DNA of 64,000 nucleotides from Escherichia phage vB_EcoM_G10400: sequence record MK327937.1; one strand, given 5' to 3'. Under the pieces are notes generated by a model that worked only from the letters and a program-made list of their open reading frames with translations, searched no databases and was not told the origin of the DNA. How positions within the stretch are numbered: position 1 is the stretch's first letter; each line of letters opens with the position of its first letter. Positions 2,126-37,795 of the stretch are shown in pieces. The translations under genes and the position numbers were made by a program.

Positions 2126-2385
2126 AAAAGATTCCTTTTAATGTATCTTTTAGACCATTCTATCATATCATCATAATCTAAAAAGTATTCATCAAATTCA
2201 GCCATGCAAACAACGCCTTGTGCTGTTTTTGATGTAATATAAATTATTCCAACATATCTAGAATCTTCTTCGGTGTAATCAATATTTGCTATGAATTCAT
2301 CATTAATGTCAAATGTCGAAAACTTCACAGTATGCATCCTTAATACAAGATACAGCCATATCTCGTAATGATTTAGGTGTGTCAT
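2122..2385 (-). CDS. Hypothetical small protein between genes 47 and 46
   Basis: 87 aa ORF in the sense orientation of the early transcription unit; overlaps its neighbour by 77 nt, so the true start may be internal. Confidence 0.4.
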   Translation of the reverse strand: MTHLNHYEIWLYLVLRMHTVKFSTFDINDEFIANIDYTEEDSRYVGIIYITSKTAQGVVCMAEFDEYFLDYDDMIEWSKRYIKRNLL

Positions 2386-2572
2386 TATCTAAAATGTTGA
2401 AGTTAAAAGATACAGCCCAGTCAGTGCAGACCGTGACCTTTTTAATACAATTATCTTCAACCTCTAGCGGTTCAAACCAATATTCAATAATTTCTTTATG
2501 ACCAATATCATCTTTTACTTCGCATTCAAAATGCTGACTCATCATAACATTTTTAAATTCATCAAAAGTCAT
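2309..2572 (-). CDS. Hypothetical small protein between genes 47 and 46
   Basis: 87 aa ORF; stop/start overlap with gene 47. Confidence 0.4.
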   Translation of the reverse strand: MTFDEFKNVMMSQHFECEVKDDIGHKEIIEYWFEPLEVEDNCIKKVTVCTDWAVSFNFNILDNDTPKSLRDMAVSCIKDAYCEVFDI

Positions 2573-3588
2573 TGTGTTGCCTCTACATATAGCTGATTCG
2601 CATATTGAATAAGTGCTTCACGGTCAGAATCAGTGATGTCTGGAATTGCATTAATGTATTCTTCCATCAACGTCTGAAGAGATTGAACTTCAACTTCTTC
2701 ACTGTCATCTGACTCGACAGAGTTATCAATCTTTGACACAACTCGTAATGAATGCACAACTTTTTCTAGTTCAGATTCGAACTTCGTTAGATTTTTGTCT
2801 ACTTCAGTTACTATAACACGTACTGATAGATTTGTAAAATCTTTATAGTCAATTTTTCCTTTAAATGGATAATGAATTCTACGATGCCAAGTAGTGTTGT
2901 TTGGAATAAATTCCATTCGTTCTGTTTCTGTATCAAACATCCAGAACCCACGAGGGTCATTCTCGTCACCTGCAGTTAGTGTCCATGGTGTCCCAATATA
3001 TCTGACGTTTGCAGCCTCAGAAATAGTATGGAAGTGACCAGACCACACTTCTTTATAAGTCTTAAGGAAATCAGGTTCAAGACCGTGAGATTTCATTCCT
3101 TTATAAAAATAAAATCCATTCAGTTCCCAGTGACCAACGCAAAAAGAAGCAGATGAAGTTTTGATGTGCTCAAGAATTTCACCAGTATTTTCTTCACACA
3201 TCCAAGGAATTAAATCAATTAAACATCCGTCAAAATCTACTGTAGTAGGCTTATCATATACTTTAACATTAGGATATTTAGCCAAAAGCTCAGTAGAAGC
3301 ATTTGGATGCATTACATTTTTGTAGTGGAGATCGTGATTTCCTACAATAGTATGTAATGTGATTCCAGCACCATCAAGCATTTGAACTATTTCACGGGCA
3401 AACTCCATAGTTTTATGCGTGATCGCTTTTCGCACATCAAAAATATCACCGTATTGAATCCATACCGTAATTCCATTTTTCTTAGAATATTCTATCGCTT
3501 GCTTAATTCCATCAATTTGAATACCGCGAATCCACTCATCATCGGCTTTAACGCCTAAATGCCAATCACCTAAATTTAAAATTTTCAT
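2569..3588 (-). CDS. 47: Recombination endonuclease subunit gp47 (Mre11/SbcD-like phosphoesterase)
   Basis: 339 aa; calcineurin-like phosphoesterase motifs (GDWHLG, GDIFD, GNHD, GHWE); paired with gp46. Confidence 0.9.
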   Translation of the reverse strand: MKILNLGDWHLGVKADDEWIRGIQIDGIKQAIEYSKKNGITVWIQYGDIFDVRKAITHKTMEFAREIVQMLDGAGITLHTIVGNHDLHYKNVMHPNASTELLAKYPNVKVYDKPTTVDFDGCLIDLIPWMCEENTGEILEHIKTSSASFCVGHWELNGFYFYKGMKSHGLEPDFLKTYKEVWSGHFHTISEAANVRYIGTPWTLTAGDENDPRGFWMFDTETERMEFIPNNTTWHRRIHYPFKGKIDYKDFTNLSVRVIVTEVDKNLTKFESELEKVVHSLRVVSKIDNSVESDDSEEVEVQSLQTLMEEYINAIPDITDSDREALIQYANQLYVEATQ

Positions 3589-3764: not shown

Positions 3765-4967
3765 TTATTTTGTAATAATGTCAAATTGCTCTTTAAAGCA
3801 GAAGCTTGAATCTTGATGCTGATACAAAAATTCATAAGCTTTTTCACGTTCACGGTCATAAAGAGTTCGATCAGATGACAGTTCTTTAATACGTTCAAAT
3901 GTTGATTTCATATCATTTTCATCAAACCAAATGATACCGCTATCATGCGAGGTCAAAGGAGTATTATCAACACGGAATTTTAAATTTTCGCCAATAGATT
4001 TCCAAAATACCGGAATTGTTCCACATGCACCAAGCTCGAGATGAGTATATTCTAAAGAGCGCTGTAGATATTTTTTATCCAACTTACTCAACTGATAACC
4101 AAAACCGGATTTGCTCATGCGTTCAAGCATTTCGCTATTTACATAACGGTCAAGAATTTGCGTTGGCAAATTAGGAGCAATTTTAATTTGGTCTACTTGA
4201 TGAAGACGATAATACTCGTATGGAATTCCTTTTTCTTTAATAGGAATGAACGCTGGAGAACGTTCCAGACCTTCCATAATAGTACTTAGTCCTGCAGGTT
4301 TAAGATGTTTTTCGTGAAAATCAAACATCTGATAAAAGCCTTTCCATGTAGTAGTACGACCAATCCAACGGTTGATATTCATGTTAATTTCAGAAACATC
4401 TTTCCAGTAGGTTGATCGAACCTTCGCAATATCCATAGGAGGCTGAAAGTTATATACTGTCGGCGCTTCTTCAATATCATCAAACAAAGAAACTGTTTCA
4501 GGATACCATTCTTTCATCAGAACTTTATTAAAATCACCATTATCAGAATGGCTAAAAATAACATCAGCTCGACGAACAGTTTCTTCTAATCCCAAATTTC
4601 GGCGCAAAGAAAGAGAAGAATGGTCATGTTGATAAACTACAACACGAACAGAAGGTTTAATGTTATCAATAATTTTTTTATAGTTATTAATAGTGTCTTC
4701 TTCAACCGAAGTAGCAGGAACTGAATTGATAATTAGAATATCACAATCATTTACCAGCTTAAGTGTTTTATCATATTCTTTTGCCAATAAAACCGGAATT
4801 GAAAATGATTTATAATCATGCGCGCAATTACGAGTAAATGATTTATCTTTAGCATAAACCAAAGTTACTTCATGACCATTCTTAATAAACCAATCACGTT
4901 GCTCAAGAGAAAATTTAGTTACACCACAACCTTCAAGACCTCGAGCCATAAAAATACATACTTTCAT
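3765..4967 (-). CDS. a-gt: DNA alpha-glucosyltransferase
   Basis: 400 aa; N-terminus MKVCIFMARGLEGCGVTKF closely matches T4 alpha-glucosyltransferase as I recall it; same length and position. Confidence 0.85.
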   Translation of the reverse strand: MKVCIFMARGLEGCGVTKFSLEQRDWFIKNGHEVTLVYAKDKSFTRNCAHDYKSFSIPVLLAKEYDKTLKLVNDCDILIINSVPATSVEEDTINNYKKIIDNIKPSVRVVVYQHDHSSLSLRRNLGLEETVRRADVIFSHSDNGDFNKVLMKEWYPETVSLFDDIEEAPTVYNFQPPMDIAKVRSTYWKDVSEINMNINRWIGRTTTWKGFYQMFDFHEKHLKPAGLSTIMEGLERSPAFIPIKEKGIPYEYYRLHQVDQIKIAPNLPTQILDRYVNSEMLERMSKSGFGYQLSKLDKKYLQRSLEYTHLELGACGTIPVFWKSIGENLKFRVDNTPLTSHDSGIIWFDENDMKSTFERIKELSSDRTLYDREREKAYEFLYQHQDSSFCFKEQFDIITK

Positions 4968-6467: not shown

Positions 6468-6539
6468 CTCTTAGCTCAATTCATAGATCTATTATATCAT
6501 AATATTTGAAGATCTATCTTAAAGCATAGAGGATATCAG

Positions 6540-6809
6540 TTATCTAAGTAAGCAGTATGCTTGGAACACTTTCTCCATCATCTTTTTAAATTCATGAATA
6601 TCTATGTAATGATCATTAATATCAGCGCGATATAAAAAGTCTAAAAACTTTTTATGGGTATTAGAATATTTACTTCCAGTTAATTCAGAAACATGGCTTT
6701 CCCAATATCCAACACCAGTTTTATTTGGGAAAAATGAAATTTTCATGTATTGGTCAACATAGAAAATACCAAAATTTTCAATAGCAATAGAAATATTAAT
6801 TAATTTCAT
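6540..6809 (-). CDS. Hypothetical protein
   Basis: 89 aa ORF in the early-strand array upstream of gene 55. Confidence 0.4.
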   Translation of the reverse strand: MKLINISIAIENFGIFYVDQYMKISFFPNKTGVGYWESHVSELTGSKYSNTHKKFLDFLYRADINDHYIDIHEFKKMMEKVFQAYCLLR

Positions 6810-7027
6810 ACATTCATCAACTTAGCCGCTTCAAAAGCTGCATCTAGTGAATCAAACTGGTCAACGTATTCAATCAATTCGCCGTAATTGGCATATAACC
6901 ACCATTGGCTAAATTCATACTCAAGGATGAATCCGTTTCCTTCAATTTGAGTTAAACCAATGCCATTTGTATTTACTTCATATCCGGCAAGACGTAAATC
7001 GTTAATAAGAGCTTCGTTCATATTCAT
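6806..7027 (-). CDS. Hypothetical protein
   Basis: 73 aa ORF; stop/start overlaps with both neighbours. Confidence 0.4.
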   Translation of the reverse strand: MNMNEALINDLRLAGYEVNTNGIGLTQIEGNGFILEYEFSQWWLYANYGELIEYVDQFDSLDAAFEAAKLMNV

Positions 7028-7350
7028 ACCTTAGCAATTTTCAGGTCTGCAAATTTTTTCTTGCGTTGATTTTTCATGCGACGAATAGTTTTATCGGAAA
7101 TTTCATGCTTTTGATAAGCTTTAGATTCTACACCAAAAGCTTTAACATCAAATTCTGACAAGATATATTGAACCAACAATTCACGGACAGTATTGCGTCC
7201 AATCTTCTGATCATTCTGTTTCATCGTCTGATGAAGCTCTTTTTCCCATTTATCCAAAATTTGAGGAGTTACAATATCGCCTTTTTCTAGCAAAGAAACT
7301 ACTTTATCATATGCGTAAGAATTAATGACGTTTTTAATTTGAATAGTCAT
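7024..7350 (-). CDS. Hypothetical protein
   Basis: 108 aa ORF; translationally coupled with the downstream ORF. Confidence 0.45.
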   Translation of the reverse strand: MTIQIKNVINSYAYDKVVSLLEKGDIVTPQILDKWEKELHQTMKQNDQKIGRNTVRELLVQYILSEFDVKAFGVESKAYQKHEISDKTIRRMKNQRKKKFADLKIAKV

Positions 7351-7383
7351 ACATTATCCTCAATTACGTTAAAATTTTATTAT

Positions 7384-7402
7384 CCAAAAAGGGCCGAAGC
7401 CC
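7384..7402 (-). terminator. Intrinsic terminator (UUCG hairpin plus U-tract)
   Basis: Minus-strand RNA GGGCUUCGGCCC followed by UUUUUGG. Confidence 0.55.
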
Positions 7403-7603
7403 TTAGCTAAACTTTTTGGCACCCTTCCAGCCTTCATACATCATTGCGGCTGATATTAATATTGCTCCTGAGCAACTTGAATATTTGTGATTCCAAAACC
7501 AGTTTAGAAAAACTTCATCATCAATACCTTGGGCTATCATATTTTCAAAGAACTGACGACGAGATTCGGCAATTCGTTGTGATAATTTAGATTCAGGATT
7601 CAT
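7403..7603 (-). CDS. Hypothetical protein
   Basis: 66 aa ORF; preceded by a terminator hairpin at 7391-7402. Confidence 0.4.
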   Translation of the reverse strand: MNPESKLSQRIAESRRQFFENMIAQGIDDEVFLNWFWNHKYSSCSGAILISAAMMYEGWKGAKKFS

Positions 7604-7819
7604 TTAAATTTTCCAGTTACCGTTTTCATCAATAAATTTAATCCAGTCATTTACTGACCACTTAGTTGTATCACCTTTTGGAGTAACATTTAAAGTGTAT
7701 AACCCCTGCTTAAAAAGCATTCGTTTGATATTCATAATTTCCTCAGCTGTAACGATAACACTCGTTTGATTTACGTTTAGCAACTCGTTGAGAAGTATTA
7801 TAATCAAAATCATCGTCAA
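7604..7819 (-). CDS. Hypothetical protein (start probably internal, near 7735)
   Basis: 71 aa ORF overlapping the upstream ORF; an internal ATG at 7733-7735 is preceded by a GAGGA ribosome-binding site. Confidence 0.35.
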   Translation of the reverse strand: MTMILIIILLNELLNVNQTSVIVTAEEIMNIKRMLFKQGLYTLNVTPKGDTTKWSVNDWIKFIDENGNWKI

Positions 7820-8075
7820 TGTAAACTGATTTTTTCAACTTTCTTACTTCACCGCGTAATTGACGATTTAGCTCATCTTTAACTTCTGAATCAATACCTT
7901 TCATTCTACGCCATTTATCTGAGCGAAAAATGTTTTCAACCATATCTTTATGACTTACACCATCAGGAGCTTTACGCTTTCCGAAATAGTCATAATCACG
8001 CACTTTTAAGTCTTTACGACGATACGTTTTACCCATGGAGTTTAATTTCCTTAGCAATTGAACTAAATGCAGCAC
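7743..8075 (-). CDS. Hypothetical basic protein
   Basis: 110 aa, lysine/arginine-rich. Confidence 0.4.
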   Translation of the reverse strand: MLHLVQLLRKLNSMGKTYRRKDLKVRDYDYFGKRKAPDGVSHKDMVENIFRSDKWRRMKGIDSEVKDELNRQLRGEVRKLKKSVYIDDDFDYNTSQRVAKRKSNECYRYS

Positions 8076-8211
8076 GATCGCAAATCATGTGTTTATGTAA
8101 CTTAAGTATAAGATAATAAACATCATAACCATTTACGTAAGTAACGCGAACAGCATTACCATTAATAAGATAATACTGTCCCTTTTTAATTTCTTTATCA
8201 ATCATAACCAT
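8029..8211 (-). CDS. Hypothetical protein
   Basis: 60 aa; first ORF downstream of the early promoter at 8241-8290. Confidence 0.4.
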   Translation of the reverse strand: MVMIDKEIKKGQYYLINGNAVRVTYVNGYDVYYLILKLHKHMICDRAAFSSIAKEIKLHG

Positions 8212-8240
8212 ATCAATTCCTCAAAGGCAATTCATGTGTT

Positions 8241-8290
8241 AATAATACCATAGTTTGAGCTCGTTGTAAACAACTTTGTGAAAATTATTT
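8241..8290 (-). promoter_or_regulatory. T4-type early promoter
   Basis: On the minus strand: A/T-rich upstream element, -35 GTTTAC (plus 8266-8271), about 17 nt spacer, -10-like TATTAT. Confidence 0.6.
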
Positions 8291-8345
8291 TAGGGAATGA
8301 TAAGAAAGGAACGATAGCTTAGAATGGTAATATACAGAATGTGAG

Positions 8346-8367
8346 AAAGAAAGGCCCAGAGGGCCCG
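8346..8367 (-). terminator. Intrinsic terminator-like hairpin
   Basis: GC stem (ggccc/gggcc) followed on the minus strand by UUUCUUUC; downstream of nrdH. Confidence 0.45.
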
Positions 8368-8369
8368 TC

Positions 8370-8678
8370 TTAGTCTTCTATGATATCTTTATCATATCCA
8401 AGTGAAATGAGAGTTTCTTTGAAGTGTTTAATGTTCTTTTGTCTAGAATCATTAATGAAAATGACCGGATAACGAATGTTAAGAGATGTGAATCCAGCGC
8501 GTTTAGCAAGAGATACAATCAGCGGACGATCATACTCAATCTTACCATTATTTGTAAGAACTTTATAGAAAGTAAAAGGAGCATTGAGCTCCTTTAGAAG
8601 TTTTGTAACTGATTGACATCCAGGACAACGACCTACTTCATCTGGAATTCCATAGACTTCAATCTTATTTTGTTTCAC
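8370..8678 (-). CDS. nrdH: Glutaredoxin-like protein (NrdH-like)
   Basis: 102 aa with a CPGC redox motif near the N-terminus; adjacent to nrdG/nrdD. Confidence 0.7.
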   Translation of the reverse strand: MKQNKIEVYGIPDEVGRCPGCQSVTKLLKELNAPFTFYKVLTNNGKIEYDRPLIVSLAKRAGFTSLNIRYPVIFINDSRQKNIKHFKETLISLGYDKDIIED

Positions 8679-8680
8679 AA

Positions 8681-8893
8681 TTATTCCTTATTAAGAGCAG
8701 CATTCAGCTTGTTAGTAATTTTATCCAGACGCTCATTAAACTCACTAGAAGATAAGCCCTTTTCTGGAGAAATCAAACTAATCACGAAAAATATAGCAAT
8801 AAAAGGAATAAGGAAAATAGCTCCAACTGCCATAAACAGAAAGAATGTTACAGTTGTAAGAAAATCAGCTAAACCTTTACGAAATTTATACAT
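8681..8893 (-). CDS. Small membrane protein
   Basis: 70 aa with one strongly hydrophobic transmembrane segment. Confidence 0.45.
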   Translation of the reverse strand: MYKFRKGLADFLTTVTFFLFMAVGAIFLIPFIAIFFVISLISPEKGLSSSEFNERLDKITNKLNAALNKE

Positions 8894-9008
8894 ATTTTAC
8901 CCTTAATTGATTAACCAAGCATTGATAAGCACTAAACTATACTGTGAATAAAATTCTGGACCAAAATGAAAAATCATATCATTTATAGTATCCATAATGT
9001 AATTCAAT

Positions 9009-9479
9009 TTAATCATGTTTCCACACCCCATCGGTATTTGACCAAAGTCGCTGATTATCTGATCCTCGCCACAGCTTTTTAGTCGGAAGATTTTTCTCAT
9101 ACTTCCCATCAATAATAACATCAACATATTTAAGCATTTCTAGTTGTTTAATATCTTCAAACTTATATCCTGTCCACAACCAAATGCTTTTATTGGGATA
9201 AAGATTTTTTACTGTTTGAACAATGCAATGAATAACATCTCGGTTATCAGGATAGAGAGGGTCACCTCCAGTTATAGTCAATCCTTCTATATAATCATTA
9301 TTCAAACATTCAATTAATTGTTCTAGTGTTTCACCAGTGAATGGAACGCCATTTCTAGCGTTCCATGTTGATTTATTATAACACCCTTCACATTTATGCA
9401 AACAACCTGTAACGAAAAGAACGACCCTGCATCCAGGGCCATTCACAAAATCGCAAGGATAAAATCTATCATAATTCAT
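9009..9479 (-). CDS. nrdG: Anaerobic ribonucleotide reductase activating protein (radical SAM)
   Basis: 156 aa; CxxxCxxC radical-SAM motif (CLHKCEGC); translationally coupled to nrdD. Confidence 0.9.
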   Translation of the reverse strand: MNYDRFYPCDFVNGPGCRVVLFVTGCLHKCEGCYNKSTWNARNGVPFTGETLEQLIECLNNDYIEGLTITGGDPLYPDNRDVIHCIVQTVKNLYPNKSIWLWTGYKFEDIKQLEMLKYVDVIIDGKYEKNLPTKKLWRGSDNQRLWSNTDGVWKHD

Positions 9480-11293
9480 TGGTGTTTAACCCTATGCATG
9501 ATTTCTTTATTTTTGCCGAGATTAAATCCACGTTCGTTCGGATTTCCCAAATAACCACAAGTTCTTCTTATTGTGTTCATCTTTTTAGGATCAGTTTCTC
9601 CACAAATAGAACAAACAAACCCGTTTTCAGTAGGAGTCATTTCATGGGTACTTCCACACGTAAAACATTTATCTACTGGCATGTTAACACCAAAATAATC
9701 TAAATGTTGTGCAGCATAATCCCAGACAGCCTCAAGACCTTTTAGGTTATTTTTCATATCAGGAAGTTCAACATAAGAAATGTGACCACCTGTCGCAATG
9801 AAATGATATGGCGCTTCACGAGAAATTTTTTCAAACGGAGTAATATTTTCTTCTACTGAAACGTGGAAACTATTAGTGTACCAGCCTTTATCGGTAACAT
9901 CTTTTACACTTCCATATTTTTCTGTATCAAGTTTACAGAAGCGATAACAAAGGTTTTCAGCAGGAGTCGAATATAAACTAAAAGCAAATCCAGTTCTTTC
10001 AGTCCACTGTTTAAGATGAGCATTCATTTTAGTTAAAATTTCTTGTCCAATATCACGACCGACAAGAATATTCAATTCGTGAATACCAATGTATCCTAGG
10101 GACACTGAACTTCTACCATTTTTAAATAACTCAATTATATCGTCATCAGGTTTAAGACGAACCCCGAATGCACCTTCTTGGTAAAGAATAGGAGCAACAG
10201 TCGCTTTAACTCCTTTTAAGGAACTAATTCTACACATCAAGGCTTCAAAGCACAGATCCATTCGTTCATTAAATAGCTCAACAAATTTCTGTTCATTGAA
10301 CTGTGTTCCAATATAAGAATCTAATGCGATACGAGGAAGATTCAGTGTTACAACACCGAGATTATTACGTCCATCAAGAATTTCATTACCAGTCGAATCT
10401 TTCCATACGCTCAAGAAACTACGGCAGCCCATCGGAGAAACAGGAATAGATGAACCAGTGATAGCTTTATTGTTCTTAGCTGAAATAATATCAGGATACA
10501 TCCTTTTGCTTGCACACTCTAGAGCAAGCTGCTTAATATCATAGTTCGGATCGTCTTTATAAAGATTAACACCTTCTTCAACGAACATAACAAGCTTAGG
10601 GAAAATAGGAGTTATCCCATCACGACCGAGACCTTTAATACGATTTTTCAGAATTGCTTTCTGAATCATTCGTTCAGTCCAGTCAGTTCCCGTACCAAAT
10701 GTAATTGTTACAAAAGGTGTTTGCCCGTTTGAACTAAAGAGAGTATTTACTTCATATTCATAAGCTTGAAATGCATCGTATACATCTTTTTCTGTTTTAG
10801 ATTGAGCATAATTCAACGCATCAGCGATTTGCCATTTTTCTGCATCCTCAATATGTTTTGCATAGGTGCGTTTAACATAAGGAGAAAGTACTTTATCTAC
10901 ATTAGCAAAAGTCGTTCCGCCGTATTGGTGAGAAGCAACCTGTGCAGTAATTTGTGCCATAATTGCAGTAGCAACTCCAATTGATTTAGGAGTTTCAATC
11001 TGTGCATTACCAAGCTTAAATCCGTTCTCAAGCATTCCTTTTAAATCTACTAAACAGCAATTAGTAAAAGGCAATGATATACTGTAATCTAAATCATGAA
11101 AATGAATTAATCCAACATTATGGGCATTTACAATATGACTTGGAAGAATACGACAAGCGATATGTTTAGAAACAATACCGGCCATTAAATCTCTTTTTGT
11201 TGGAAAGACGCGAGAATCTTTGTTGGCGTTTTCCGTATTTAATTCTTTATCTTTATTTGAAATAAAATTTAAAACATCTTTTTCTAAAGACAT
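9476..11293 (-). CDS. nrdD: Anaerobic ribonucleoside-triphosphate reductase
   Basis: 605 aa uninterrupted ORF; C-terminal glycyl-radical motif (RRTCGYLG) and a Cys-rich zinc site. Confidence 0.95.
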   Translation of the reverse strand: MSLEKDVLNFISNKDKELNTENANKDSRVFPTKRDLMAGIVSKHIACRILPSHIVNAHNVGLIHFHDLDYSISLPFTNCCLVDLKGMLENGFKLGNAQIETPKSIGVATAIMAQITAQVASHQYGGTTFANVDKVLSPYVKRTYAKHIEDAEKWQIADALNYAQSKTEKDVYDAFQAYEYEVNTLFSSNGQTPFVTITFGTGTDWTERMIQKAILKNRIKGLGRDGITPIFPKLVMFVEEGVNLYKDDPNYDIKQLALECASKRMYPDIISAKNNKAITGSSIPVSPMGCRSFLSVWKDSTGNEILDGRNNLGVVTLNLPRIALDSYIGTQFNEQKFVELFNERMDLCFEALMCRISSLKGVKATVAPILYQEGAFGVRLKPDDDIIELFKNGRSSVSLGYIGIHELNILVGRDIGQEILTKMNAHLKQWTERTGFAFSLYSTPAENLCYRFCKLDTEKYGSVKDVTDKGWYTNSFHVSVEENITPFEKISREAPYHFIATGGHISYVELPDMKNNLKGLEAVWDYAAQHLDYFGVNMPVDKCFTCGSTHEMTPTENGFVCSICGETDPKKMNTIRRTCGYLGNPNERGFNLGKNKEIMHRVKHQ

Positions 11294-12105
11294 AATTCTA
11301 ATTTATCCTTTTGAAATTCTTCGTCTAAATATGGGTTCCAACCCATTTTAAACCTTTTGATGAAATTATCAATTCTAAATTTCGGTAAGTTTAAATCCGC
11401 AAAAATAGATGATTTACTTTTAAAATCTGGACTTAAATAATCATATAAAATTTCTGCGTATTTTAACCATAATATACAAGTACCAGATTTAATTGCTCTT
11501 GGAGTTTTCCAAGGTTTTACACCATACATCGGATTTCCGCTTCCTTTATGCCTGATAGAAGATGAAATTCCAATTTTAATTTTAGCTTCCTTTGTATGCG
11601 AAAATCCACGATGTGGATTTTCTTTCCAGTATTTTTTAGAAGCTTCTGATATTTTCTTTCTAGCTAAATTAGTATGATGCTTTCCATAAAATCCATGATT
11701 TTTGCCTTTATTACGATTTCTTTTAATCATGGTTATTGATTGCTTTTCTCTAGTTTCTTTAGAAGGAGAAATACCATATGTCGTAAATCGGCCATCAGCA
11801 TATGCTAAATTAAAATACTCTTTATTCCATACATCTTTTTCTATATTCTTTTGAAATTCAGCTTCAATGCTAGTTATTTGTTCATCTCCGACTAATTGAA
11901 AATATAATATTTCAACTTTCGGCGTTTCTTTCAATAAGGCTTTTTGAAATTCGGAAGATGACGAAGACGAATAATAAAATTTACCATTTTTATCAATAAT
12001 ATTCGTTCCATCAAAAGTGCAATTGGTTTTACTTCCAATGTAATAATATGGTGGGGTTTTAGCATTAATTCTATTAATAAATGATAGTTTATATACTACA
12101 TTCAT
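11284..12105 (-). CDS. GIY-YIG family homing endonuclease (free-standing)
   Basis: 273 aa; N-terminal GIY-YIG-like motif (VYKLSF...YYYIGSK) followed by repeated H-T-x-E-x-K-x-K-I-type DNA-binding motifs; its stop overlaps the nrdD start. Confidence 0.7.
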   Translation of the reverse strand: MNVVYKLSFINRINAKTPPYYYIGSKTNCTFDGTNIIDKNGKFYYSSSSSSEFQKALLKETPKVEILYFQLVGDEQITSIEAEFQKNIEKDVWNKEYFNLAYADGRFTTYGISPSKETREKQSITMIKRNRNKGKNHGFYGKHHTNLARKKISEASKKYWKENPHRGFSHTKEAKIKIGISSSIRHKGSGNPMYGVKPWKTPRAIKSGTCILWLKYAEILYDYLSPDFKSKSSIFADLNLPKFRIDNFIKRFKMGWNPYLDEEFQKDKLELCL

Positions 12106-12575
12106 TTTAAACTCTTTCTAAGCTGCTTCTTGAATGAAGCTATTAATTGTGTTTTGGTGTCAGATTCATTATATTCAAATCCTCTTTGAAGCATCTCAGC
12201 CATCATTTCCTCTTTTCCTAAACGAGAAAATTCCTTTGATTTATCTCCAACAAAGTTAGGGTGAATATTATTTTGGGTGTAATCGGATTTTAAATAAGTA
12301 AGTAAATTTTCTAACCATTCAAGATAATCAACCCCTTGTCCCTTTAAGCCAGAACGATTAAATTTATGTTTCATTTGACCTTCTGCGGCATTACAGAGAT
12401 TACAAAGCAATCCACGTACCTTTCCTGCTTTTGGTCCATTTAATTCATGGTCATGGTCGAGGTGATTAGCTTGAACGTCAGGATTTAGTTCTCGTTGGCA
12501 AATTAAACATTTACCATTTTGTGCATCATAAAATTTCTGTTTTTCTTCTTTGTATAATTTGCCAGTCAATAACAT
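12102..12575 (-). CDS. 49: Endonuclease VII (Holliday-junction resolvase)
   Basis: 157 aa; zinc-binding Cys cluster and HNH-like core; matches T4 gp49 from memory. Confidence 0.9.
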   Translation of the reverse strand: MLLTGKLYKEEKQKFYDAQNGKCLICQRELNPDVQANHLDHDHELNGPKAGKVRGLLCNLCNAAEGQMKHKFNRSGLKGQGVDYLEWLENLLTYLKSDYTQNNIHPNFVGDKSKEFSRLGKEEMMAEMLQRGFEYNESDTKTQLIASFKKQLRKSLK

Positions 12576-12582
12576 AATAAAC

Positions 12583-12607
12583 CCTTACCTTAAATAGATA
12601 AGGGTAT
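12583..12607 (-). promoter_or_regulatory. Stem-loop in the gene 49 leader
   Basis: Inverted repeat accctta / taagggt (7 bp stem, 11 nt loop) just upstream of the gene 49 start; regulatory role inferred. Confidence 0.35.
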
Positions 12608-12616
12608 TTATTATTT

Positions 12617-13120
12617 TCAAGTATTGTAAAACATTTGATTCAATCGCTTATATTGCCGAATCTTTTGGTCAGAAAAAGAAATTTGAGTTTCAAGCCATTC
12701 AATGTATTCTGCGGCAGCTTGCATCAGGTTACCTTCATAACCATCGTTATTTTCTTGCGCAGCTAATTTAGCTAATGCGTATGAAATACGTTCACCTTGA
12801 AAATCGGCTTTAGGCTTCTGAACAACTTGATTAGTTCGCTCTACAACTTCTTCAATTTCGCCATTTTCAACGGATTCAGTATTCCATAAGCACCAATACG
12901 TAATTGGCTTATCATAGATATTAATAATCTTTCCGTCGGAAAGTTCAATTTCAATAATTCCAGTATCAGGCTCTATATCATCTTCACATTCTTTTGCAAG
13001 TTCACGAACTTTAAAGACAGTACCTGCGCTAAGTTCCGGCCAGTAATTACACAGCCCTGTATCAGTACGATTAATTCTAAACCACTTATCTACTGTAATC
13101 ATGTCCCATCTCCATATCAA
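12617..13120 (-). CDS. Hypothetical protein (occupies the position of T4 pin)
   Basis: 167 aa ORF between gene 49 and nrdC; the pin assignment is by synteny only. Confidence 0.45.
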   Translation of the reverse strand: MIWRWDMITVDKWFRINRTDTGLCNYWPELSAGTVFKVRELAKECEDDIEPDTGIIEIELSDGKIINIYDKPITYWCLWNTESVENGEIEEVVERTNQVVQKPKADFQGERISYALAKLAAQENNDGYEGNLMQAAAEYIEWLETQISFSDQKIRQYKRLNQMFYNT

Positions 13121-36511: not shown

Positions 36512-36587
36512 TGGTCGAGGCAGTAGGGATCGAACCTACGACCCAGGACTTAGAAGGTCCTTGCTCTTCCTTCTGAGCTATGCCCCG
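36512..36587 (-). tRNA. tRNA-Arg (anticodon UCU)
   Basis: Hand-folded cloverleaf: acceptor CGGGGCA/TGCCTCG, anticodon arm AGGAC-CTTCTAA-GTCCT, T-arm GGGTTCGATCC; CCA encoded. Confidence 0.85.
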
Positions 36588-36590
36588 TAA

Positions 36591-37256
36591 TTAAAATTTC
36601 ATTTTTCGACCTTTAAACCATCCTTCTGGAATTGGGTCAGTTTTCTTAATACGTTTAGAAACTTTTTCATCTAATGAATGAATCCACATCATGCCAAATT
36701 GGGAATTCTTTTCACCTTGTTGGTGTTTATTTCTGGCGTGAGATTCTTTCATTTTATTAATAGTTTCAGGAGTATGGGTCTTACCCAAGAAAGATTTAGT
36801 ATTTAAAAATTTCTCTCTATACTTAGGATTATCCCAAAGCTGTTTAAACCTTTCTGAACCCATTTTACGATATTTTTCTTTAAGGTCTGGGTCGTTCTCA
36901 AATCTGGTTTTAAAAGCGGCAGCTCCTTTTAAGGAAGCTTCTTTCTTTTTATCCAAATATTCTTTAGTGTTTAAATGGTCCCAACCACCTTCACCACCTA
37001 ATTTCAAATTATAAACATCAGAGCGCTTTAAAAACTCTTCAGTCACAATATTCTTTTCTGACTCAAACATAGAGGTTTTATCGTCAAAGAACTCTAATAT
37101 TTCTTTAGAAAAATTTTCTATACCATACTTATCTTGGGCTCTTTTTAATAATTTACCAGAACCCATATATCCATCATCTAAATTTTCGGTAGAATGAGCG
37201 CCTATATAGATTTTATTATTAATTTTATTTGTTATTTTATAAATGTAATGGAACAT
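36591..37256 (-). CDS. segB: GIY-YIG homing endonuclease SegB
   Basis: 221 aa; N-terminal GIY-YIG motif (YIYKITNKINNKIYIG); embedded in the tRNA cluster, as T4 segB is. Confidence 0.8.
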   Translation of the reverse strand: MFHYIYKITNKINNKIYIGAHSTENLDDGYMGSGKLLKRAQDKYGIENFSKEILEFFDDKTSMFESEKNIVTEEFLKRSDVYNLKLGGEGGWDHLNTKEYLDKKKEASLKGAAAFKTRFENDPDLKEKYRKMGSERFKQLWDNPKYREKFLNTKSFLGKTHTPETINKMKESHARNKHQQGEKNSQFGMMWIHSLDEKVSKRIKKTDPIPEGWFKGRKMKF

Positions 37257-37297
37257 AAATATCTCCTATTTCTAAGAGTATTTATGTTCTCAAAATA

Positions 37298-37369
37298 TGG
37301 CCCTGGGTGGAATTGAACCACCATCTGGCGATTATGAGTCGCTTGCTTGAACCTTCCAGCTACAGGGCC
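37298..37369 (-). tRNA. tRNA-Ile (gene anticodon CAU; would score as Met)
   Basis: Hand-folded: acceptor GGCCCTG/CAGGGCC, anticodon loop CTCATAA, T-arm GGTGGTTCAATTCCACC. Ile assignment follows the T4 tRNA set. Confidence 0.75.
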
Positions 37370-37375
37370 TTGATA

Positions 37376-37448
37376 TGCTGATTGACGGAATCGAACCGCC
37401 GACGTCCTCATTACAAGTGAGGTGCTCTACCTACTGAGCTAAATCAGC
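37376..37448 (-). tRNA. tRNA-Thr (anticodon UGU)
   Basis: Hand-folded: acceptor GCTGATT/AATCAGC, anticodon arm CCTCA-CTTGTAA-TGAGG, T-loop TTCGATT. Confidence 0.85.
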
Positions 37449-37455
37449 GAAATTA

Positions 37456-37542
37456 CGGAGGCGATAGGATTTGAACCTATGAGTCGCCGGAGCGACTGCC
37501 GGTTTTCAAGACCGGTGCATTAAACCACTCTGCCACGCCTCC
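37456..37542 (-). tRNA. tRNA-Ser (anticodon UGA)
   Basis: Hand-folded: acceptor GGAGGCG/CGCCTCC, anticodon arm CCGGT-CTTGAAA-ACCGG, long variable arm, T-loop TTCAAAT. Confidence 0.85.
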
Positions 37543-37544
37543 AG

Positions 37545-37618
37545 TCTCCGCGGCAGGATTTGAACCTACGACATTCTGCTCCCAAAGCAGATGCTCTACC
37601 AAACTGAGCTACACGGAG
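37545..37618 (-). tRNA. tRNA-Pro (anticodon UGG)
   Basis: Hand-folded: acceptor CTCCGTG/CGCGGAG, anticodon arm TCTGC-TTTGGGA-GCAGA, T-arm GTAGGTTCAAATCCTGC. Confidence 0.85.
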
Positions 37619-37630
37619 TAAATTAAATTT

Positions 37631-37702
<72 letters not shown>

Positions 37703-37708
37703 AAACTT

Positions 37709-37795
37709 TGGTACGAGAAGTGGGACTCGAACCCACAAGGAAATCATTCCGCAGCATTTTAAGTGCTGTGCCTTTACCAATTTGACCATTCTCGC
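37709..37795 (-). tRNA. tRNA-Leu (anticodon UAA)
   Basis: Hand-folded: acceptor GCGAGAA/TTCTCGT, anticodon arm CAGCA-CTTAAAA-TGCTG, long variable arm, T-arm GTGGGTTCGAGTCCCAC; CCA encoded. Confidence 0.85.

Follow-up and report, generated by a model that had tools for sequence, protein, structure and literature searches.

Why the gene of a putative homing endonuclease stands directly in front of an nrdD gene that is free of the group I intron found in its T4 counterpart, and what the one has to do with the other, is the question raised by positions 9,009 to 12,105 of the stretch of DNA considered here, which derives from Escherichia phage vB_EcoM_G10400 (MK327937.1) and, at its full length of 64,000 nucleotides (nt), will be called the window. 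The window belongs to a T4-like phage (Tequatrovirus), and its best matches over 8900..12700 are ~97.5% identical. In the following, it will be argued that the 273-codon open reading frame (ORF) at 11284..12105, on the minus strand, probably encodes a functional homing endonuclease of the Seg type, and that together with ~225 nt of foreign nrdD sequence it would form a mobile cassette of ~1.04 kb.

In the order of the minus strand, pin (12617..13120) is followed by gene 49, which encodes endonuclease VII (12102..12575; Pfam EndoVII match), by the 273-codon ORF, by nrdD (9476..11293) and by nrdG (9009..9479; Pfam NrdG match). The ORF, taken from the ORF list and matched by PHROG 7504/314/655 (‘homing endonuclease’), begins with an ATG that overlaps the stop codon of gene 49 (ATGA) and ends with a TAG located 10 nt within nrdD (overlap ATGTCTTTAG). 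The nrdD gene itself, encoding the large subunit of the anaerobic ribonucleotide reductase, is one unbroken ORF of 605 codons (Pfam NrdD, E=8e-171). An earlier, sequence-only reading of this DNA had already described a single uninterrupted nrdD of that length and, immediately upstream, a 273-residue GIY-YIG endonuclease gene whose stop overlaps the nrdD start; both descriptions stand, given the ORF list and a window free of Rfam intron matches for the former, the 10-nt overlap and the similarity to T4 SegG for the latter. The further statement that the endonuclease gene is ‘fused’ to the 5′ end of nrdD has to be dropped, since the two lie in different reading frames and, therefore, overlap.

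In T4 the stop codon of gene 49 directly overlaps the nrdD ATG, with no ORF between them; the sequence-only reading had allowed for a T4 ortholog without nuclease motifs at this position, and there is none. The same seamless 49/nrdD junction is found in 632 phage records, T6 included, and in every sampled more distant T4-like locus in which nrdD adjoins gene 49. The endonuclease gene is present in 48 phage records (~7% of ~680) at 96-99.5% nucleotide identity, and so many near-identical copies rule out a chance ORF. From this distribution, the gene is to be regarded as a derived insertion at the 49/nrdD junction. In the junction alignment, the last 30 nt of gene 49, the left flank of the cassette, are identical or one base apart in phages with (seg+) and without (seg-) the endonuclease gene and, thus, the endonuclease ATG occupies exactly the position of the nrdD ATG of seg-less phages.

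The nrdD gene of the window is a chimera, in which the first 225 nt of the coding sequence (CDS) are foreign and the remainder is ~96-97% identical to T4. This imported 5′ block (CDS nt 1 to ~225, codons 1-75; 11069..11293, minus strand), delimited by T4 alignment, synonymous divergence and linkage, is ~62% identical to the T4-type allele and holds 86 of the 143 mismatches between the two nrdD genes. Between the T4-type and window-type haplotypes the synonymous divergence (dS) is ~3.1, i.e. saturated, with a nonsynonymous divergence (dN) of 0.37, which argues for import from a distant lineage and not for evolution in place. The haplotype boundary near nt 225 is sharp: the carriers of the endonuclease gene are all of the window type and the seg-less loci all of the T4 type, except for a scar in phage OLB35 that will be described below. 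At 90% identity or more, the block is found in 49 records, in 48 of which it is contiguous with the endonuclease gene as one 1037-nt unit; the remaining matches are at most 80% identical and cover just part of the block. Rapid divergence in place, selected for self-immunity, was considered as the origin of the block and rejected, because the synonymous sites are saturated and a related substitute end accompanies the diverged cassette of a second lineage (contig L057, see below). From these sequence comparisons, the block can be inferred to be a cleavage-resistant replacement of the region that the endonuclease targets.

That the protein is an endonuclease of this kind depends on the assignment of its domains. 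Residues 1 to ~105 (11791..12105, minus strand) are assigned to an N-terminal GIY-YIG catalytic domain on the basis of the residues that are invariant in 17 members of the subfamily (Y5, R12, Y22, G24, S25, K26, Y44, S47, E81 and N99), and residues 1-126 share 40% identity with the catalytic domain of T4 SegG (E=5e-27), so that the comparison with T4 Seg proteins suggested by the sequence-only reading gave a clear counterpart. The AlphaFold model is confident for residues 1-100 (predicted local distance difference test score, pLDDT, ~93) and less so for the C-terminal helices; it contains the three-stranded sheet and helices of the GIY-YIG superfamily, with the tyrosines of the GIY and YIG motifs (V4-Y5-K6 and Y22-I23-G24) on strands 2-8 and 21-26. 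When the 17 Seg-subfamily domains were compared by HHalign with nine canonical PF01541-bearing homologs (77.6% probability, E=1.9e-5), Y5, Y22-I23-G24, E81 and N99 fell in the GIY, YIG, Glu and Asn columns, so that the invariant E81 and N99 align with the canonical glutamate and downstream asparagine. The counterparts in I-TevI are E75 and N90, besides the catalytic R27 that follows the YIG motif. Y5 and Y22 are 17 residues apart, outside the canonical GIY-YIG spacing of 10-11 residues (11 in the canonical set). The 6-residue insert of the spacer forms a short helix with the invariant R12, and the same feature is found in T4 SegG; the long spacer is, therefore, a mark of the subfamily and does not exclude membership.

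Past the catalytic domain, a NUMOD3 motif at residues 130-153 (11647..11718, minus strand; Pfam PF07460, E=6e-7, above the curated cutoff) begins the predicted linker and DNA-binding part (residues ~106-273), in which a second, weaker NUMOD-type stretch is present; the C-terminal part is 55% identical in P0002, the only other nrdD-associated homolog. NUMOD3 is the sole match that Pfam reports. The GIY-YIG model PF01541 fails to match the 273-residue protein even at E<=10, a result that, on the terms of the sequence-only reading, would speak against a GIY-YIG assignment. However, in a control with proven GIY-YIG enzymes SegG gave no Pfam match at all and I-TevII was likewise missed by PF01541, so that the negative carries no weight. 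Searches of PDB sequences by phmmer and of PDB structures by Foldseek gave no link to GIY-YIG, and the Seg-subfamily profile run against PDB sequences returned just spurious beta-propeller-like matches to the hairpin at residues 26-49; these negatives were judged uninformative because SegG and I-TevII fail in Pfam alike. On sequence and model, the protein is, therefore, assigned as a free-standing Seg-type GIY-YIG endonuclease, built from an N-terminal GIY-YIG domain and a NUMOD module.

The protein is also maintained. The 11 endonuclease copies compared from different phages are all intact at 273 codons, and their median pairwise dN/dS is 0.14, the value for the catalytic domain (0.08) being lower than that for the remainder (0.22); intactness and purifying selection together mark a protein under selection and not a decaying remnant. 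Carriers include Lutter, MLP2, PD112, fPS-2, fPS-90 and TadeuszReichstein in Tequatrovirus, and JK42 and AV118 in Mosigvirus. JK42 has an endonuclease gene 96.8% identical to that of the window beside a gene 49 of only 81% identity. More generally, the cassette is found on a Tequatrovirus-type gene 49 (97-98% identical) and on a Mosigvirus-type one, being itself 96-97% identical throughout, and seg-less phages occur with both types of gene 49. Since all four combinations are seen, the element has moved relative to its left flank. The patchy distribution, the presence in two genera and the strict linkage to a foreign flank fit homing of an intronless type. Metagenome and viral contig scans, with alignment of the nrdD-associated copies, yielded near-identical copies only and no further diverged examples; partial tblastn matches in PspYZU05 and vB_Sen_ST2 were set aside because they do not lie beside nrdD.

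Some observations weigh against an active, homing endonuclease. The gene is infrequent, at the ~7% given above. None of the Seg-subfamily members aligned, SegG included, has an arginine in the column of the canonical catalytic arginine, for which the invariant R12 and K26 are candidate stand-ins. Moreover, the nrdD-nrdG region is 92-98% identical between the two genera even in phages that lack the endonuclease gene. The last point has a counterpart in a group of loci (L017, L018, L021, L026, L049 and L051) in which, between Tequatrovirus and Mosigvirus-like phages, nrdD and nrdG are 92-98% identical and the adjacent gene 49 is 78-82% identical; a sharp mosaic boundary runs exactly along the 49/nrdD junction, with or without the endonuclease.

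The low frequency and the missing arginine also suit an alternative in which the endonuclease was once mobile but no longer homes, being kept for the nrdD signals embedded in its 3′ end and passed on by vertical descent and ordinary recombination. The nrdD ATG and its upstream context do lie inside the endonuclease ORF, a promoter-like match is present at 11345..11372, and embedded promoters are known to favour the retention of seg and mob genes (PMC2988022). Such signals, however, would constrain only the last ~60 nt, whereas it is the catalytic domain that is under the strongest purifying selection (dN/dS 0.08), and every subfamily-invariant residue is present; OLB35 has lost the gene cleanly with nrdD intact, and the cassette occurs on two different gene 49 backgrounds. 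For these reasons, the loss of homing is held to be distinctly improbable.

If the 273-residue protein is a functional homing endonuclease, the cassette would spread as follows. In a mixed infection, the enzyme would cut the endonuclease-less nrdD of a co-infecting phage within its first ~225 nt. After resection of the break, the genome that bears the cassette would serve as the template for repair, with gene 49 on one side and nrdD beyond nt 225 on the other as homology arms, and the divergent nrdD 5′ block would be copied in along with the endonuclease gene, because a block of such low identity cannot itself support homologous exchange. In the recipient, the endonuclease gene would take over the original start context of nrdD at the gene 49 stop, and nrdD would be translated from the ATG embedded in the 3′ end of the endonuclease gene, possibly by translational coupling. 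The block would preserve NrdD function, and its ~38% sequence difference would probably shield the carrier from its own enzyme. Nuclease activity, cut site, self-immunity and homing of the 273-residue protein are in this scheme predicted from sequence. Characterized Seg enzymes cleave the allele that lacks the endonuclease gene, at some distance from the insertion site, and their genes spread as the double-strand break is repaired and the flanks are co-converted (PMC2988022), and the behaviour of the cassette, as far as it can be read from comparison, would match this published biology.

A best guess for the cut can be made from a natural variant. In L057, a Logan SRR27536177 contig, the gene order over 2188-3336 is gp49, a 55-codon orphan that represents the native nrdD 5′ end, an endonuclease homolog (55-66% identity) broken by stops and a frameshift, and a full nrdD, which once more has its ATG inside the 3′ end of the endonuclease gene. 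This order comes from one metagenome contig, in which the frameshift aligns to the poly-Ser run of the window ORF (residues ~47-50) and is possibly an assembly error. The native nrdD of this lineage resembles that of another locus, L038, and compared with that native type the first ~75 residues of the L057 NrdD are 43-64% identical and the rest 96-100%. Nucleotide homology restarts at native nt 166, exactly after the end of the orphan at nt 165, so that the unit made up of endonuclease gene and substitute 5′ end has simply been inserted into nrdD, at nt ~165. At the extreme N-terminus, the substitute ends of L057 and of the window are closer to each other than to either native type, and L057 is, judged from its sequence, an independent second lineage of the cassette. 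Because its insertion point lies there, the cut in T4-type nrdD would be expected near nt 165, around ATTATGAAAGCGCATGAA.

The same contig bears on the possibility that the target is in gene 49 or elsewhere, the divergent nrdD block being historical baggage from the lineage in which the first insertion took place. Free-standing endonucleases can cut hundreds to thousands of base pairs from their own gene, and the block boundary coincides with a conserved motif; furthermore, according to Sandegren et al. (2005), SegH and Hef reportedly cut their own genomes as well, so that a resistant allele would not be obligatory. Against such a target, however, stand two very diverged units, with 55-66% protein identity, that both keep a substitute nrdD 5′ end and show the same overlap of the nrdD start with the 3′ end of the endonuclease gene, which speaks for a functional role of the nrdD fragment within the element; the L057 insertion point, moreover, is inside nrdD itself. 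A target outside nrdD is, thus, regarded as unlikely. A bolder extension of nrdD targeting is that endonuclease and substitute 5′ end are an old, co-evolving composite element that invades the interior of nrdD, with cut and insertion near nt 165, and supplies a start codon and a resistant N-terminal segment, the window representing the matured form after loss of the native fragment. With a new start codon and N-terminal coding segment provided by the element, the interior of nrdD would be open to it with no need of an intron or intein. This extension is put forward tentatively, as somewhat short of an even chance.

Other variants would record how the cassette is lost. In OLB35 (MH992122.1, Mosigvirus, a record flagged UNVERIFIED), nrdD begins at L049 3650-3724 (minus strand) with MNVVYKLLYFISNKDKELNT, i.e. 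the first seven residues of the endonuclease, MNVVYKL, are joined in frame to a block of the window type. The endonuclease gene has been removed by a clean deletion of 812 nt and nrdD is of normal length, so that this junction is to be read, from its sequence, as a deletion scar. OLB35 had also been considered as an ancestral, seg-less source of the block; this was rejected because its nrdD opens with codons of the endonuclease GIY motif, which makes it derived by deletion. In FL18 (PP400780.1; L050, 2147-4575), a truncated endonuclease of 222 residues directly adjoins a second GIY-YIG/NUMOD3 gene (276 residues), after which comes nrdG, with nrdD wholly missing; apparently, the two endonuclease genes usually found on either side of nrdD were joined by a deletion, and nrdG has lost its partner.

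It remains to relate the cassette to the intron. T4 nrdD carries a 1033-nt group I intron at CDS nt 538/539, and alignment with T4 places the corresponding site of the window between CDS nt 538 and 539 (10755..10756, minus strand). This site is empty: no group I intron was detected by Rfam in the whole window, the same search detecting the T4 nrdD intron at 105 bits, and the exon allele at the site is the one common to all intron-less relatives among the 13 loci compared. In holding that T4 nrdD is split by an intron carrying I-TevIII, the sequence-only reading was right about the group I intron and mistaken about its endonuclease, since the nrdD intron encodes I-TevII and the nrdB intron I-TevIII (PMC2988022 Table 1). 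The endonuclease gene is found together with the intron and I-TevII in fPS-2 and G8 and, judged by span length, also in Manna, F26 and Lv5cm, and it is missing from most intron-less phages; gene and intron, therefore, assort independently. The intron-less state of the window's nrdD is unrelated to the endonuclease gene, and is simply the common exon allele. Accordingly, the proposal of intron-less homing in the sequence-only reading survives in part: the term ‘intron-less homing’ describes Seg biology correctly, and a free-standing, patchily distributed Seg gene with a linked foreign block is present; the suggested tie to the nrdD intron falls away.

A role for the endonuclease in the life of that intron, either by mobilizing it in trans or by replacing I-TevII in intron-less alleles, would nevertheless have a precedent in the trans-homing of the T4 nrdB intron by MobE (PMC2790892), and the gene lies only ~540 nt from the intron insertion site. 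This role is considered very improbable, as all combinations of seg+/- and intron+/- are seen, the intron-linked exon changes (+8 to +20) neither coincide with the block at nt 1-225 nor are linked to it, similarity to I-TevII is not significant beyond a short motif, and the diverged L057 copy sits at the nrdD 5′ end and not at the intron site. As to the intron itself, intron-bearing nrdD genes (T4, fPS-2 and G8, the latter locus L005) share a fixed exon haplotype at positions -2, +8, +11, +14, +15, +17 and +20 relative to the insertion site, which is found in no intron-less phage compared; these changes overlap the cut zone of I-TevII, which we take to lie at about +13 to +15, and would fit co-conversion or resistance polymorphisms. 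A further insertion is seen in L038 (IMGVR_UViG_2706796082_000001, 6468-9245), where NrdD is a single ORF of 925 residues with ~300 extra residues in the conserved motif PFTNC|CLVDL at codon ~79-80, just downstream of the block boundary of the cassette; the Rfam intron search was negative for this locus, and the insertion is most likely an intein.

How the cassette is expressed can be approached from motif scans. These revealed no obvious promoter of the endonuclease gene's own. A motif of the MotA-box middle-promoter type (ATGCTTCAAAGAGGATTTGAATATAAT) lies in the 3′ end of gene 49 (12168..12194, minus strand) and, as a pattern match, may drive both the endonuclease gene and nrdD; together with the shared start context, it suggests that the endonuclease gene is expressed from the signals on which nrdD relies in phages without the endonuclease. 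Several seg genes are, indeed, promoter-less cassettes relying on upstream promoters (PMC2988022). Within the 3′ end of the endonuclease gene, ~50 nt upstream of the nrdD ATG, a sigma-70-like pattern match (TTGATA-16-TAAAAT, 10/12; 11345..11372, minus strand) may be an embedded nrdD promoter. Promoter and terminator scans of the region as a whole gave no enrichment over shuffled sequence, with 11 promoter matches as opposed to 10.5 expected.

At the opposite end of nrdD, the junction with nrdG is seamless in the window, with a 4-nt overlap according to the ORF list and, thus, without mobC or a SegH-type gene at this second insertion site. In T4, mobC, an HNH endonuclease gene (PMC2988022 Table 1), lies between nrdD and nrdG. 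In relatives, the mobC position is taken by at least two other types of endonuclease, i.e. a GIY-YIG/NUMOD3 protein with a DNA-binding domain as in I-TevI, probably SegH-like, and a 279-residue NUMOD1/I-HmuI-like protein. Genes at this junction are found in fPS-2 (g076c; L002, 2077-2811), FL18 (L050, 2614-3444), Pu-Krd-SF5 (L056, 85-915) and TadeuszReichstein (L003, 2070-2909), the last being the 279-residue gene, and fPS-2 has three endonuclease genes within and around nrdD. Elsewhere in the window, an ORF of 221 residues (36591-37256, minus strand) lies in a gap between the tRNA genes of the cluster 36515-37795; with a canonical GIY-YIG N-terminus (MFHYIYKITNKINNKIYIGAHS...) and the position and size of T4 SegB, it is to be taken, on these features, as a second free-standing Seg gene.

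In T4-like phages, free-standing homing endonucleases have a formative influence on both mosaicism and marker exclusion. With the cassette, the sites of endonuclease insertion within or next to nrdD increase by one; the others encountered here or in relatives are that of the I-TevII intron (nt 538), the mobC/SegH-type site at the nrdD/nrdG junction and, in a distant relative, that of the probable intein at codon ~79. So many sites place nrdD among the most heavily parasitized phage genes. The locus also offers a life-cycle series at a single place, from insertion with an orphan (L057) through the tidy cassette (the window and 47 other records) to truncation with nrdD lost (FL18) and scar (OLB35). 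The predicted cut site is concrete and cheap to address, given that carriers such as TadeuszReichstein, as well as T4 and T6, exist as characterized isolates. For annotation, the GenBank labels ‘homing endonuclease’ and ‘hypothetical protein’ given to this gene can be sharpened to nrdD-associated Seg paralog. In JK42 (MK962756.1; L051, 2716-3537), the record labels the gene ‘SegG homing endonuclease’; it does not lie at the 32/59 locus and is no SegG ortholog, so that the label is a mis-transfer based on catalytic-domain similarity.

In the searchable literature, no description was found of an endonuclease at the 49/nrdD junction. The closest known system is T4 SegG, and the window endonuclease would be expected to work like SegG, SegF and SegE. 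With SegG it shares a homologous catalytic domain over ~125 residues and the signature of the subfamily, i.e. MNxVYK, the long GIY-YIG spacer with invariant R12, YYIGSK, and a beta-hairpin insert ending in Y-x-x-S and followed by Glu and Asn; both are free-standing genes with overlapping, translationally coupled boundaries, and both are missed by the Pfam GIY-YIG model. In contrast, SegG is encoded between genes 32 and 59 and targets gene 32, nrdD being the presumed target here, and similarity is confined to residues 1-126, the C-terminal 150 residues being unrelated. Given the different locus and the unrelated C-terminal domain, the window endonuclease is, on sequence grounds, a paralog of SegG and not its ortholog. 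The closest full-length paralog by catalytic domain is P0003 (273 residues; L058, an ENA ERZ13617658 contig, 4001-4822), 56% identical over the N-terminal half and located between gp5 and a 5.1-like gene, the position of T4 segC, which illustrates how one catalytic module is found on different DNA-binding tails at different loci.

SegH, reportedly described by Sandegren, Nord and Sjoberg in 2005 as a GIY-YIG endonuclease replacing mobC, is likewise of the Seg type, sporadic, and located in the nrdD neighbourhood of T4-like phages, but it occupies the mobC site at the opposite end of nrdD. That the window gene is SegH is ruled out by position only, as it lies at 49/nrdD and the nrdD/nrdG junction is seamless; the GIY-YIG genes at the nrdD/nrdG junction of fPS-2 and FL18 have no catalytic-domain similarity to the window endonuclease. 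I-TevII, too, is a GIY-YIG family member and targets nrdD, as presumed for the window enzyme, with a short ‘YIG...Y-x-SSS’ motif in common; it differs in being intron-encoded at CDS nt 538, whereas the window gene is free-standing at the nrdD 5′ end, in lacking significant overall similarity to the window protein, and in co-occurring with the window-type gene in several phages. Finally, mobE splitting nrdA in Aeromonas phage Aeh1 is also a case of a free-standing endonuclease gene that has landed within a ribonucleotide reductase gene or on its margin, the function of the latter being kept by a compensating arrangement (PMC2988022; PMC3045599). In Aeh1 the protein is split into two interacting pieces, whereas in the window the 5′ coding end is substituted by one with its own start codon and, in L057, the native 5′ end that was displaced is still there as an orphan. 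The window endonuclease is, therefore, best placed as an uncharacterized Seg-family member of a well-known class and not as a new kind of system, its noteworthy feature being that a substitute 5′ end of the gene that it probably targets travels along with it.

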